Shown piece by piece: positions 57,522 to 63,757 of a stretch of 64,000 nucleotides of DNA. The DNA lies in assembly GCA_035471805.1 (NCBI GenBank), contig DATIPS010000019.1, forward strand, positions 145 to 64,144, written 5' to 3'. The stretch's first letter is position 1, and each line of letters begins with the position of its first letter. The DNA is from Acidimicrobiia bacterium (lineage in GTDB: Bacteria; Actinomycetota; Acidimicrobiia; Spongiisociales; JAHEDJ01). Below the pieces are notes generated by a model. The model was not told the origin of the DNA, searched no databases, and saw only the letters and a list, made by a program, of their open reading frames with translations. Position numbers and translations under genes: made by a program.

Positions 57522-57566
57522 ACCCCAGGCCGTTGACCCGGGGTTTCTGAGTGTCGGAGGGGCGTC
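57522..57566. repeat. attL-like direct repeat: copy of tRNA-Leu 3' end + terminator hairpin
   Basis: gaaaccccaggccgttgacccggggtttctgagtgtcggagggg versus 63641-63685 gaaacccccgttgacctgggggtttctcagtgtcggagggg. 13/13 identity over agtgtcggagggg (tRNA acceptor 3' strand + T-stem) plus homologous hairpin. Confidence 0.55.
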
Positions 57567-57668
57567 TGCAGCCTCTAGTACACGCGATCCTTGGGAGACG
57601 TGGTTGGTCGCCGCGTCGCGTGATTGACCCCGAGGATCGCATGGCATCCGAGGAACTTCGAACGCCCG

Positions 57669-58010
57669 TCAGAGTTCGAGCAGAAACCGAAGGACTCGAC
57701 CAACCTCGAAGATCGTAGAAGGACCGACCTGCCCGAGACGAGCGATCATCCGCCGTTCGGAAACGGACTTGAGGTCCTCGCATTTCGCATAGCTCAACGC
57801 CTCCAATCCGGAATCTTCTGGGTCAATCTCTATGTGTGACGGAAGATTCCGATGAGATGTCGTACAAGGAACGACCATGACCACCCCCGCCGGACTGTCA
57901 TTGAGCGCATCCGCCGAAACCACCACGGCGGGACGGCGGCCCGACTGTTCTCGTCCAACCGGCTCGCCGAAGTCAACCAGCCAGATCTCGCCTCGCCGTG
58001 GGGTGATCAC
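57669..58010 (-). CDS. mazF: MazF/PemK-family type II toxin endoribonuclease
   Basis: MITPRRGEIWLVDFGEPVGREQSGRRPAVVVS...PCTTS typical PemK/MazF fold. Overlaps antitoxin gene by 4 nt. Confidence 0.8.
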   Translation of the reverse strand: MITPRRGEIWLVDFGEPVGREQSGRRPAVVVSADALNDSPAGVVMVVPCTTSHRNLPSHIEIDPEDSGLEALSYAKCEDLKSVSERRMIARLGQVGPSTIFEVGRVLRFLLEL

Positions 58011-58243
58011 GAGCGATCGCTGGCCGCGCCATCTTCAAGGCCACGCTCATGCTCGATCTCGGCCCACGCCACTGGATCTGCTCGAAGATCGTCGAATCCA
58101 ACCTTCATCTGGTCGAAGAACAGGCGCCGTTCTAGCGCATCGGCTGCCTCATCCAGTAGCTGCGTCATCGGACGCCCGGTGGAATCGGCCAGTCTGGCAA
58201 ACCGATCTCTGGTGTTCTCGCTGACTCTGATGGTGGTGCTCAT
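58007..58243 (-). CDS. mazE: type II antitoxin (ribbon-helix-helix / MazE-like)
   Basis: 78 aa, N-terminal RHH-like MSTTIRVSENTRDRFARLA, acidic C-terminus. TATACT -10 element ends ~7 nt before the ATG on the minus strand (leaderless-like). Confidence 0.65.
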   Translation of the reverse strand: MSTTIRVSENTRDRFARLADSTGRPMTQLLDEAADALERRLFFDQMKVGFDDLRADPVAWAEIEHERGLEDGAASDRS

Positions 58244-58570
58244 GAATCGAGTATACCAAGTCGTTGACTAATCAGTCTACATCTAGGGGCACCGAGGAAT
58301 ACGTCATGAGCGTATCCGCTGTTCACCGACGGTGCGGAAGCGACCCGTCGCGGTGTACAGGCATCAACCGTAACCATCCAAGAGATGGACCTCACTGGAG
58401 AGTTGTCTTCTCGCGGTGTCGGAGGATCGATTCGGACCCTAATCCCTCGTGGCACTCCGTCCGGCGAGTTCCCGGCAGCCGGGTAGCCCGGATACGCGCG
58501 CTATCCCCATCCCAGTGAACGGATCCACCTTCCCGAACCGCGCTGTCGAGCGGCGACCCGGGCCGACAGA

Positions 58571-58828
58571 TCAGAAGTCGAACGGGACGAGAGCTCCGTC
58601 GTTCTCGATCAACACCACCGGTTGCGCCTCCCAGGTTTCGGCATCGCCGCCCATGCCTGGGGAGTCGGCCGGCATGCCCGGCAGAGCAATCCCGATCGCA
58701 TCGGGGCGTTCATCGAGGAACTGCAGAATGGCCCCGGCCGGCACGTGACCTTCGATCACATAGCCGTCGAGCAACGCGGTGTGGCACGATCCGACGCCAT
58801 CCAGCCGTCGCAACAAAGATGCCGACAA
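58571..58828 (-). CDS. DUF411-domain (CopG-like copper-associated) protein, short or N-terminally truncated
   Basis: LDGYVIEGHVPAGAILQFLDERPDAIGIALPGMPADSPGMGG matches DUF411 core. Only 85 aa, no signal peptide or Cys motif. Bounded upstream by the cytochrome c stop. Confidence 0.5.
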   Translation of the reverse strand: MSASLLRRLDGVGSCHTALLDGYVIEGHVPAGAILQFLDERPDAIGIALPGMPADSPGMGGDAETWEAQPVVLIENDGALVPFDF

Positions 58829-58879
58829 GAACGGCCATCAATCCGGTTCGCATCCGAACAGGGTATGTGAACTGCTCGG

Positions 58880-59290
58880 CTATGGCGGATACGGCTCGAA
58901 CCCCTCCCGGCGTTGCACATCGCGCACGAAAGCGACAATGGCCTCCACCTCTGAGTCTGAGAGATCGTCGATAGGCGGCATCGGCCCGAATGACCAATGG
59001 TGCGGGGTTACCCCGCGGCGCACCGCCAACAAGAATGCCGCATCGCCGTGGTGGCCGGGTTCGTACACCTCGGACAAGTGAGAAGGACCGCGTTCCGTCC
59101 CGCGAAGGCCGGCACCATGACAGGAGGCACACGCTTCGGCATACAGTTCGCTCCCGGCAGCGATCAAGGCCGGATCCGAAGGCTGGTTCCCGCCTCCGTC
59201 CGCAGCGCCAGACCCCGAGCAGGCGCTCAGAACGACAACAACCAAAAGGATCGGCAAACGAAACGCTCGCAGTCGGCGGCCCTTCCACAT
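58880..59290 (-). CDS. class I cytochrome c lipoprotein
   Basis: Lipobox VVVLSAC. Haem motif CASCHG. Met ligand region (WSFGPMPP). Confidence 0.8.
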   Translation of the reverse strand: MWKGRRLRAFRLPILLVVVVLSACSGSGAADGGGNQPSDPALIAAGSELYAEACASCHGAGLRGTERGPSHLSEVYEPGHHGDAAFLLAVRRGVTPHHWSFGPMPPIDDLSDSEVEAIVAFVRDVQRREGFEPYPP

Positions 59291-59441
59291 TCCGCCGAGA
59301 TGCTAGCCCCGGGTGCGGTCCGGATACCCCCTACTCGCGGCAGCGCAGCCTTTAACGAATCTTGATGTTTGGCCCGGAAGTTGCTGAATGTCCATCGGCA
59401 ACACTTTGGGTCATGACATCAAAGCAAGGAGAACAACGGTG

Positions 59442-61924: not shown

Positions 61925-62170
61925 CTGTTCACATCGTCGCAGGCGGACCGCTTTCCTTCGCGGCCCGACGTTCGCCTTCCACCGTCGGGACGTTGCGGTG
62001 GTCGTTGGTGGAAACCGAGGAGGCAGACAACCTCGGGGTCAAGGAATACGACAGAGTGTCTGAGACCTGCAATCGACGCAGCTTTGAGGTCGAGCTGGCT
62101 ACACAACTCCAGGTCAGCGCGTTATCTGGGAGGGCAGTTGATCAACATTTCGAGCTGTCCTTGACGGATG
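61925..62170. repeat. ~245-bp interspersed repeat, copy 2 (immediately downstream of HK stop)
   Basis: See copy 1. Begins 13 nt after HK TGA. Track ORFs 61648..62235 and 56973..57365 lie in it but differ by non-conservative substitutions. Confidence 0.75.
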
Positions 62171-62276
62171 GTGACGGTTTAGCCCTTATTTGGCCCGGTG
62201 TGTCAACCAGAAAGTGGCTAGGCAACTCTGTCTGACGGGTGTTCAATCGGAATAGAACGCAACCGAGAGGGAGTGA

Positions 62277-62621
62277 GTGTCTCTGATGCTGGAATGGATC
62301 TACGCTCGGATCAAGTTCTTCGTTCTTTGCATGGGTCTGTGGGCAGCGGCCGTATGTGGTTTTGTCCTGACGGCAACTTTGAATCAGATTGCGTCTGAAC
62401 AGGCTGTGATTGTGCCTCTGTGGCCTTTCGGCGATGTGGTCTTTGAACCGCCTCTTCGCTACCTGGCGATTTCTCTCGTGTTTCTGGGGCTTGGCATTGG
62501 TCTCGCGATCCCGTTCAACTCTGAGGTCGGCCTGGAACCGGTGCGGAGACAGTGGGCCAAGATCTTGGCCGCTTCTATGCACGGTTTGAAGCGTATCCTG
62601 ACTGCACCTTTCAATCGATAG
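62277..62621 (+). CDS. hypothetical membrane protein (lower-GC ORFan)
   Basis: 114 aa, three predicted TMs. Noticeably A/T-richer codons than surroundings. Confidence 0.4.
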   Translation: MSLMLEWIYARIKFFVLCMGLWAAAVCGFVLTATLNQIASEQAVIVPLWPFGDVVFEPPLRYLAISLVFLGLGIGLAIPFNSEVGLEPVRRQWAKILAASMHGLKRILTAPFNR

Positions 62622-62815
62622 TGCCGCGCCGTGGGCACGCCAGTCGGCTCATGGACTGAGACTTTGAAAGGCTAGGCGCTCCAGGGATTGGCCCTACGAA
62701 GCCTGGCTCGGCGGGTTGGCTACTCGGGGCCATATGCATCTGGTCGGTCACAAGCCCGAGCGCGATAATCGTAGGTGGAACGGAAAGGGAGCCTCGTTGA
62801 AAGAGGCGACTGATC

Positions 62816-63340
62816 GTGAAACGTACCCCACTGATCGCCCTCCTGGCGACTGTTCTGGTCTTTGCGTTTGCGGCACCGGCAACTGCCGGGGGAGCAAACG
62901 ACAACGGAAACGGCAATCGGACGCTCTGGGTCGAAACGTACTCGTCTGTGGGAGTCTCCTATTCGGTGCCTATCTGCGAAGGCGGCATCGTCGTCGATCA
63001 TGTCGAGGCTCAGGGACCATACGAATGGACTAGAACCTTCTTCGGCAAGCCCGACTTCACCAGAGCCGGTTTGAGTCATGTCTCGGTATGGGCGTCTGAC
63101 GATGGCGCCTACCGGCACGTATATCGCGAGAAGCAAACCGTCAACAGTATTGACTTCGGAGGAACCGGCCAACCGAATGTCTACAACATGCATGGCAAAT
63201 GGACTTGGTCTGACCCTGACGGCGTCTATCTAGAACGCAGCACTCTCAATCAAAACCGCTGGGATCAAGACGGCGTGTCGCAGCCGACCAAGTACATCGA
63301 CACGGGCTGGGTGTGCCTGCGAGACACCGTGCTCCCGTAG
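62816..63340 (+). CDS. secreted hypothetical protein (lower-GC ORFan)
   Basis: Signal peptide MKRTPLIALLATVLVFAFAAPATA. Asn/Gly-rich linker. No recognisable domain. Confidence 0.45.
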   Translation: MKRTPLIALLATVLVFAFAAPATAGGANDNGNGNRTLWVETYSSVGVSYSVPICEGGIVVDHVEAQGPYEWTRTFFGKPDFTRAGLSHVSVWASDDGAYRHVYREKQTVNSIDFGGTGQPNVYNMHGKWTWSDPDGVYLERSTLNQNRWDQDGVSQPTKYIDTGWVCLRDTVLP

Positions 63341-63642
63341 CCACGCCGCTGCCGGTTGGATAGTGCGATTCTGGATGGGTCAGGAATTGAAACTCCCCGA
63401 CTCAACTGGACCCCCCGACTTCGGTTGCGGGGTTCCAACATTTCTGCTTTCCGATCCTGGCCCCACACCTTCAGGCAAGATTCTTTCGATAACCCCTGGT
63501 CAGAAAGCCGTTCTATGGGTTTCCGAAGCGTGTCCTGCACCCGACATTCAGGAGATTGGGAGGACTGTCTCCAAGGTGAATGTCACCAAAATGCCACCAA
63601 GAGCAGATTCGTTGGATTGTGGGCGGTTGGCCCGGACAGCAA

Positions 63643-63668
63643 GAAACCCCCGTTGACCTGGGGGTTTC
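63643..63668 (-). terminator. intrinsic terminator hairpin 3' of tRNA-Leu
   Basis: gaaaccccc-gttgacct-gggggtttc (9-bp stem), 4 nt beyond tRNA 3' end. Followed on minus strand by ttcttgctgt. Confidence 0.55.
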
Positions 63669-63672
63669 TCAG

Positions 63673-63757
63673 TGTCGGAGGGGGGACTTGAACCCCCACG
63701 CCCGTTTAGGGCACTAGGCCCTCAACCTAGCGCGTCTGCCAATTCCGCCACTCCGAC
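63673..63757 (-). tRNA. tRNA-Leu (anticodon GAG), type II with long variable arm
   Basis: Reverse complement GUCGGAG-UG-GCGGAAUUGGCAGACGCG-CUAGG-UUGAGGG-CCUAG-UGCCCUAAACGGGCGU-GGGGGUUCAAGUCCCCC-CUCCGAC-A. 85 nt. CCA not encoded. Confidence 0.85.

Follow-up and report, generated by a model that had tools for sequence, protein, structure and literature searches.

A recombinase-less and apparently composite islet beside tRNA-Leu(GAG) in an Acidimicrobiia bacterium

The locus described here lies in a window of 64,000 nucleotides (nt) from an uncultured Acidimicrobiia bacterium (Actinomycetota; GCA_035471805.1, contig DATIPS010000019.1, positions 145 to 64,144). Near the right end of the window, an intact tRNA-Leu(GAG) gene is followed on its 3' side by a segment of about 6.1 kb that contains putative copper-homeostasis genes and a toxin-antitoxin pair, and whose far end is marked by a second copy of the tRNA end. 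The original prediction, made from this sequence, regarded the segment as a single integrase-less islet carrying a copper module as cargo. The bounding repeat stands, while the single island with copper cargo is not supported. We lean towards a composite islet without a recombinase of its own, which took shape at a tRNA-Leu(GAG) hotspot in three steps or more. The two ends of the segment are formed by the following features:

63672-63757, minus strand: intact tRNA-Leu(GAG) (ARAGORN; Rfam RF00005, 52.7 bits)
63641-63671, minus strand: proximal hairpin (copy B), likely the tRNA terminator, with a 2-nt linker (fold and pattern scan)
57550-57562, minus strand: tRNA-Leu 3'-end fragment, an attachment-site (attR-type) scar (exact 13-mer repeat)
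57519-57549, minus strand: distal hairpin (copy A) (fold and pattern scan)

The tRNA gene points with its 3' end towards lower coordinates, so that the islet starts at the tRNA 3' end and a direct repeat of the 3' part of the gene lies at its distal end. The 64 kb contain the 13-mer AGTGTCGGAGGGG exactly twice, 6121 nt apart and in the same orientation (57550-57562 and 63671-63683), while 0.16 occurrences are expected by chance. The distal copy comprises 11 nt of the tRNA gene (57552-57562) and 2 nt from downstream of it, and each copy is accompanied by an adjoining hairpin. The hairpin pattern GAAACCCC..GGGGTTTC is likewise found only twice in the window, with an expectation of 0, which argues against a common terminator family. 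Both hairpins are stable (z about -3.2 to -3.3), with folds of -28.5 kcal/mol for the proximal one (63641-63670), directly 3' of the tRNA, and -27.8 kcal/mol for the distal one, and the differences between them are compensating changes; they have diverged and remain pairable, as had been proposed. Neither was called by a consensus terminator scan, because they lack a T run, and an Rfam scan of 56-64 kb retrieved nothing besides the tRNA. The same type of hairpin follows an uninterrupted tRNA-Leu(GAG) in a distant relative (metagenome contig L043; contigs are given as L numbers throughout), and it is therefore the native terminator of this tRNA gene, as judged from the sequence comparison. A third, more degenerate tRNA fragment was looked for further to the left, with chance-level matches only. 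A same-species variant, described below, lacks the second copy. We conclude that the duplication of tRNA end and hairpin is an old att-type integration scar, and neither a chance repeat nor a dispersed terminator family, in agreement with the original prediction.

Between the two repeats, the following features were recognized, where type 2 denotes the single-copy arrangement of the same species treated below:

57563-57668, minus strand: arm between MazF and the tRNA fragment (aligns with L131 and L133)
57669-58243, minus strand: mazEF-type toxin-antitoxin operon (Pfam, PHROG)
57669-58010, minus strand: MazF/PemK toxin (PF02452, E=2.6e-25, 89 bits, profile positions 1-108 of 109; MazF-like PHROG)
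58007-58243, minus strand: antitoxin gene (mazE-like PHROG, E=1.2e-5)
58571-58797, minus strand: 3' fragment of a DUF411 (CopG-like) gene (Pfam; full-length relatives extend upstream)
58798-58838, minus strand: stub of a cbb3-type cytochrome gene, first 13 codons (MAVLVGIFVATAG; matches L002 1745-1785)
58880-59290, minus strand: intact cytochrome c gene, 136 amino acids (aa) (PF00034, PF13442)
59388-61912, plus strand: operon of SHOCT, Met/His-repeat, response regulator and histidine kinase genes (Pfam; 99.3% identical to type 2)
59388-59642, plus strand: SHOCT protein (Pfam)
59646-59972, plus strand: Met/His-repeat protein
60030-60731, plus strand: OmpR-type response regulator (Pfam)
60728-61912, plus strand: histidine kinase with a Met-rich loop (Pfam)
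61920-62170, no strand assigned: D2/D3, proximal copy, non-coding, downstream of the kinase gene (90% identical to 57208-57458)
62171-63635, plus strand: low-GC (guanine plus cytosine) block of ORFans, with open reading frames (ORFs) at 62277-62621 and 62816-63340, flanked by the 9-nt repeat TTGGCCCGG

Read from the tRNA, the order is hairpin, ORFan block, D3/D2, kinase, regulator, Met/His protein, SHOCT protein and cytochrome c, and then the 13-codon cbb3 cytochrome stub fused to the DUF411 3' fragment, antitoxin, MazF and tRNA fragment. Beyond the scar follow the second hairpin, a 58-nt spacer, another D3/D2, a cytochrome c remnant, a cbb3 cytochrome remnant and the flank. Pfam bore out the predicted PemK/MazF, DUF411, cytochrome c, SHOCT, response regulator and histidine kinase domains. 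The toxin-antitoxin pair was also correctly recognized: the antitoxin gene comes first and overlaps the toxin gene by 4 nt, which is the arrangement of MazEF/PemIK type II modules. No integrase, excisionase or transposase family was detected with Pfam or PHROGs in the 53 ORFs of at least 50 aa between 57373 and 63691, as had been predicted. The islet thereby lacks the recombinase of integrase-mediated tRNA islands, and nothing encoded in the segment can move it.

A comparison of the window with itself revealed that the DNA adjoining the distal repeat on its left (56973-57458) repeats the islet interior collinearly, though riddled with deletions, at 90-98% identity. Three remnants make up this second copy:

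57208-57458, no strand assigned: D2/D3, distal copy, remnant of the putative resident locus (90% identical to 61920-62170)
57059-57215, minus strand: second cytochrome c gene remnant, codons 3-55, with no start codon (98% identical to 59127-59283)
56973-57058, minus strand: second cbb3-type cytochrome remnant, codons 18-47 approximately (94% to L002 1646-1732; tblastn)

The 58-nt spacer (57459-57516) between the distal D2/D3 and its hairpin occupies the position held by the ORFan block in the proximal copy. Codons 18-47 of the cbb3 cytochrome are kept in the distal copy only, the proximal copy being without them. Four joints interrupt the two copies. At J1 (56972/56973), the type-2 contigs go on into CopA and MerR genes; J2 (57058/57059) has almost no microhomology; the stretch lost at J3 (about 57208-57215, with 8 nt of microhomology) begins at cytochrome c codon 2 and ends 7 nt after the kinase stop; and at J4 (58797/58798) the 13 cbb3 cytochrome codons run, in a different frame, into about 75 codons at the end of DUF411. 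Microhomology at J1, J3 and J4 amounts to 3-8 nt. All four joints cut genes on both sides and are therefore derived states. J4 is an illegitimate joint that lies inside the islet and truncates both the cytochrome gene and DUF411.

Contigs of the same population were recovered from metagenomes through exact-protein look-ups. Those from independent samples, L029 to L038, cross the distal D2/D3 (D2/D3'), the tRNA fragment, mazEF, DUF411 and cytochrome c at 99.75-100% identity; J1 to J4 are spanned by a single contig (L011; 60 kb is given for the spanning contig), and L021 connects the Met/His gene, by way of the tRNA, with the core genes SBP, secG, tpiA, pgk and uvrC. The mazEF region itself is 99.75-100% identical across many samples. 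Since independent contigs cross the repeat and the junctions, the arrangement is real and not an assembly artefact. One might suspect that the repeat arose by chance, that it belongs to a dispersed terminator family, or that two co-occurring strains were assembled into a chimera, as short-read contigs break at internal repeats and both arrangements occur in the same sample sets. Given the separate samples that span the junctions, the 60-kb contig and the two-fold occurrence of both 13-mer and hairpin, we consider this explanation extremely improbable.

The second arrangement, type 2, was assembled from the overlapping contigs L014, L001/L002, L009/L010 and L119. Samples containing the two arrangements include ERZ27272662, ERZ23499138, SRR31444225, SRR31906003 and SRR31906004. 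Its order is flank, copper-type P-type ATPase (CopA), MerR, cbb3 cytochrome, cytochrome c, SHOCT protein, Met/His protein, regulator, kinase, D2, a 68-nt spacer, tRNA-Leu and SBP. It is a single copy, without the second repeat, mazEF, ORFans, hairpin or D3. The ATPase scored 578 bits against a cut-off of 397 for TIGR01511 (copper-translocating P-type ATPase), while the MerR-type regulator remained under every curated cut-off. Type 2 belongs to the same species, with 99.6% identity over 2.1 kb of the right flank and 99.3% over 4 kb of the left flank, and it diverges from the window exactly at the 3' end of the tRNA. The shared copper module is 98.2-99.3% identical between both arrangements. Since the module stands next to the tRNA in a repeat-less strain of the same species, contiguous with CopA and MerR, it is resident and not cargo; by this comparison, it is the normal neighbour of tRNA-Leu(GAG) and was not gained with the repeat. 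The original prediction, which had counted it as island cargo, fails on this point. It had also suggested looking among close relatives for an empty tRNA-Leu site. The second repeat is indeed absent from type 2, but the site is not empty: the 3' side of the tRNA holds the copper module behind a different spacer, and type 2 is an alternative occupant. A genome-collection search with the neighbouring triose-phosphate isomerase retrieved only relatives of at most 70% identity, in which secG followed by tRNA-Leu(GAG) is conserved; their distance rules them out as examples of an empty site. In L014, a tRNA-like string where the flank meets CopA was rejected as a further scar, as it is indistinguishable from an ordinary GC-rich terminator.

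The tRNA gene itself is variable. In addition to the allele of the window (63672-63757), also present in L119, a second tRNA-Leu(GAG) allele, 94% identical, was found in L009 (2261-2344) and L010. A compensatory change in the anticodon stem, from G-C to C-G, and the variable arm distinguish the alleles. Both accompany the same 99%-identical copper module, and L119 pairs the allele of the window with the type-2 spacer. The second allele therefore indicates recombination with more distant lineages at the tRNA-Leu(GAG) gene itself. In the distant Actinomycetota contig L048, a 59-nt direct repeat (98% identity; 17357-17415 and 19374-19432) covers tRNA-Leu(GAG) from its anticodon stem onwards, which is the 3' half of the gene, and encloses 2 kb with a family-1 glycoside hydrolase (glucosidase) gene only and no integrase. 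This independent half-repeat marks tRNA-Leu(GAG) as a recurrent target, and the sequence comparisons point to such a role within this class.

We also searched JGI metagenomes for relatives of MazF, which yielded 80 loci, and scored the 76 others that had enough downstream sequence. The 10-mer CCCTCCGACA lies at most 260 nt from the MazF stop in five of the 76 (L131, L133, L134, L142 and L151), where about 0.02 are expected by chance. About 70 of the 76 have no tRNA fragment nearby, and their contexts are mostly unrelated. The arm of about 100 nt from MazF to the fragment can be aligned among the window, L131 (MazF 90% identical) and L133 (MazF 78%), which identifies 57563-57668, at the level of sequence, as the island-side arm of the old attachment site. 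The layout of L133 is secG, tRNA-Leu(GAG), about 5.4 kb, mazEF and tRNA fragment, and its cargo consists of a Kelch protein, an extracytoplasmic function (ECF) sigma factor and a TSP3 protein, with no integrase. In L178, mazEF lies 120 nt past the tRNA, and in L182 0.8 kb past it, with a degenerate fragment that includes the T-arm lying beyond; in related loci, the tRNA fragments are longer and degenerate and likewise include the T-arm. Since the junction of mazEF and tRNA fragment recurs in divergent lineages with other cargo, the scar is older than the present islet content. These data point to a junction that predates what the window now contains, and to turnover of the cargo between tRNA and mazEF; the toxin-antitoxin module may discourage loss of the segment. 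No integrase was found in the ORFs scanned in L133, nor in seven scar-adjacent ORFs of L129, L131, L182 and L183, nor among the best 25 of 55 families in 89 ORFs of ten related loci. Likewise, the ORFs scanned beside the tRNA-fragment scars of related loci revealed no integrase-bearing element at the same att site.

Two further observations were made in these loci. A cation-diffusion-facilitator metal exporter is encoded beyond the tRNA fragment in L131 (668-1600 and 1457-2503), and metal genes therefore adjoin the scar in a second lineage too. The motif GCTRACTACAC directly follows the tRNA or tRNA fragment in L129 (3300), L131 (683) and L178 (4121), and is found 110-240 nt upstream of the antitoxin gene in L129, L163 (113) and L178. 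The window carries it at 57382-57392, in the distal D3 copy (D3') and in the opposite orientation.

These comparisons bear on whether the whole 6.1 kb could have arrived in one site-specific integration at the 3' end of tRNA-Leu, which would have made the repeat, and be now fixed or moved by an integrase encoded elsewhere. The tRNA-3'-end direct repeat bounds the segment exactly and is missing from the same-species variant, the divergence between inner and outer copies would fit a foreign origin, and one event would give the observed order. This explanation shifts the problem to the donor, in which the native terminator, D3/D2, a resident-type module and the internal J4 would need prior assembly. 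The cargo beside the mazEF and tRNA-fragment junction is of quite another kind in L133, and in L178 the junction stands almost by itself; neither the islet nor the related loci examined revealed an integrase. We regard such a single integration as rather unlikely. The segment does not behave as one unit, contrary to the earlier view of it, as a remnant second copy extends outside the left repeat, J4 lies inside, and the mazEF junction is shared with other cargo.

The composite islet that we favour would have arisen as follows. In a first step, an old integration into the 3' end of tRNA-Leu(GAG) would have left the partial tRNA copy with the original terminator hairpin (57519-57562) and mazEF at the distal end of the inserted DNA, beside the attR-type scar; it is the comparison with other lineages that suggests this event. 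At the start of the second step, a resident copper locus would have stood beyond the scar, with hairpin, D3/D2, kinase, regulator, Met/His protein, SHOCT protein and cytochromes, together presumably with MerR and CopA. A related strain would then have supplied a comparable block of 4.9 kb (58798-63671), placed between the tRNA and mazEF through recombination anchored in the conserved tRNA or right flank, with the other end closed illegitimately in DUF411 (58797/58798). J4 is the joint seen there, and by analogy the process would resemble homology-facilitated illegitimate recombination. In a third step, the redundant resident copy would have decayed by three deletions (J1-J3), which also took CopA and MerR out of this locus; the truncations are present in the sequence, and the order of the deletions is our reconstruction. 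The main support for this history is that the proximal block is about 99% identical to the conspecific type 2 and only 90-94% identical to most of the distal remnants.

Alternatively, the tRNA-proximal copper locus, including the tRNA end and hairpin, could have been duplicated in tandem in situ, with decay of the distal copy, overwriting of the proximal copy by other strains, and no integration. The two copies are collinear and in the same orientation, the cytochrome c remnant has 98% identity, and the two tRNA alleles, like the module identities of 97.7-99.8%, show that strains recombine at this locus. Yet D3 and the hairpin, which are absent from type-2 strains, are 8-15% diverged between the two copies of the window, and type 2 therefore could not have overwritten them. 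The presence of cbb3 cytochrome codons 18-47 in the distal and not in the proximal copy also speaks against a duplication, which would moreover leave unexplained mazEF and an arm homologous to the scar arms of other lineages; L133 and L178 point to the mazEF and tRNA-fragment junction without a second copper copy. We consider a tandem duplication improbable.

Several points weigh against the composite history. An intact intermediate, carrying mazEF, tRNA fragment, hairpin, D3, D2 and the full resident copper locus, did not turn up in any genome, and neither did a mazEF-less donor with tRNA, hairpin, ORFans and D3. As the related loci examined showed no integrase, past integrase involvement rests on analogy with described elements (PMC9897764, PMC2440964), and the tRNA overlap of 11 nt is short for the identity block of a tyrosine integrase. 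The cytochrome c remnant, at 98%, exceeds the 90-94% of its neighbours, and gene conversion or stronger constraint is therefore needed to account for it. Type 2 was pieced together from overlapping metagenome contigs and has its tRNA in two alleles. Finally, the presence of mazEF beside tRNA-Leu could reflect either vertical inheritance or horizontal spread.

A broader and more tentative proposal, to which we give limited credence, is that mazEF and the arm of about 100 nt form the conserved core of a family of recombinase-less islets at the tRNA-Leu(GAG) 3' end in Acidimicrobiia, with the toxin-antitoxin module anchoring the scar and the cargo being repeatedly exchanged. Capture of cargo between tRNA and mazEF would depend on an integrase supplied in trans or on illegitimate recombination with a homologous anchor. 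If this were true, the locus would be a cassette-like hotspot without a recombinase of its own.

Islands integrated at tRNA genes include integrative elements of actinomycetes (PMC2440964), and partial tRNA copies are described as attR sites (PMC9897764). As in tRNA-gene islands and prophage remnants of the Islander type, the segment stretches from the complete tRNA to a partial 3' copy, the content of the segment varies between strains, and one low-GC block is present in the window. Unlike in such islands, no integrase or mobility gene was found here or in the related loci examined, the overlap is 11 nt, and the enclosed DNA is mostly a second copy of a neighbouring resident locus and not foreign cargo. 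Cis-mobilisable elements (CIMEs) and att-site accretion of integrative elements are known from work on Streptococcus thermophilus. Like CIMEs, the segment is flanked by att sites and has no recombination or transfer genes; in principle, it could be moved by the integrase of a related element and grow by accretion at the intact site. It differs from them in that no related integrase-bearing element was found in the loci scanned and that the joints are illegitimate and not att-att.

Sequential displacement by homology-facilitated illegitimate recombination is documented for effector-immunity arrays of the type VI secretion system and for rhs loci (PMC5361080; defined in PMC3240628). The likeness lies in the anchoring of one side in conserved sequence (the tRNA and right flank in our case), the arrival of a homologous module, an illegitimate joint at its far end, and older copies pushed distally as truncated orphans. 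Here, the modules are metal-homeostasis genes beside a tRNA and not toxin-immunity genes, and the process is inferred from one locus. Chromosomal type II toxin-antitoxin modules stabilise islands and integron arrays. In the window, similarly, a complete mazEF stands at the edge of a variable segment and is kept there across lineages; its stabilising role here is only putative, and its homologues are mostly in unrelated contexts. Taken together, the structure is comparable in its workings to a tRNA-site genomic island in a degraded state, modified by secondary displacement.

Within the islet, only 62.0-63.6 kb deviates in GC content (0.53-0.57 against about 0.62), where the original prediction had noted a drop at 62.2-63.6 kb; the remainder (0.58-0.67) is like the flanks. 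The ORFs 62277-62621 and 62816-63340 had zero Pfam matches, and the 174-aa ORF retrieved three homologous clusters only among 1.84 billion representatives and is close to an orphan. The ORFan block is missing from copy A and from the type-2 contigs, and it is a further insertion or deletion polymorphism. The exact 9-nt direct repeat TTGGCCCGG occurs at both of its edges (62190-62198 and 63627-63635); it could be a target duplication or deletion microhomology, and 9-mers recur by chance in this region. D2/D3 was rejected as a small gene, as its substitutions follow a synonymous pattern in no reading frame, and in the proximal copy a candidate terminator hairpin of the kinase operon was read by eye.

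The kinase scored 161.9 bits against a cut-off of 292.55 for NCBIfam cztS_silS_copS, and the regulator 177.4 bits against 279.2 for cztR_silR_copR, both below the heavy-metal subfamilies. The putative copper role of this two-component system rests on the Met-rich loop and on the neighbouring genes. At 59780-59892, the Met/His-repeat gene contains a 60-nt tandem repeat encoding a (D/N)xMH(D)YMWNG unit, and its copy number varies within the population (108 aa in the window and 128 aa in L001). In the left flank, the gene at 56206-56876, encoding a secreted protein of about 223 aa, has a 39-nt tandem repeat at 56642-56739 encoding PIPVEPDGGAGDT, and L011 is one unit shorter than the window.

DUF411 is a fragment, as proposed, keeping the C-terminal 75 or so codons of about 170 (full-length relatives have about 160-175 aa). 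Tracing the closest full-length DUF411 genes gave no link to mazEF or an integrase, and the match at 84% is a paralogue that the same organism carries in a different copper locus. Full-length genes were found in Acidimicrobiia contigs L122 (9740-10264), L121, L123, L124, L125, L127 and L128. Upstream, all seven continue in frame across one TGA as far as a lipoprotein signal peptide. This TGA lies at the first Cys of a CxCC metal motif (VHQxP[DG]-TGA-GCC), and a conserved hairpin with a CGGGU apical loop begins 4 nt past it. The full-length DUF411 protein probably contains selenocysteine, in which case gene callers cut it to 78-104 aa.

The locus is an ordinary though instructive tRNA hotspot; it is not a new kind of mobile element and reveals no new mechanism. 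It illustrates how metal-homeostasis genes would be turned over within one species at a tRNA hotspot of an uncultured actinobacterial lineage: an old, mazEF-guarded scar persists, a newer copy of the copper module would have been imported beside the tRNA, and the resident copy, including CopA and MerR, would have been eroded. In strain-resolved metagenomics, it accounts for the breaks that assemblies of this population show here. It is also a warning that DNA between two att-like repeats is not automatically island cargo.

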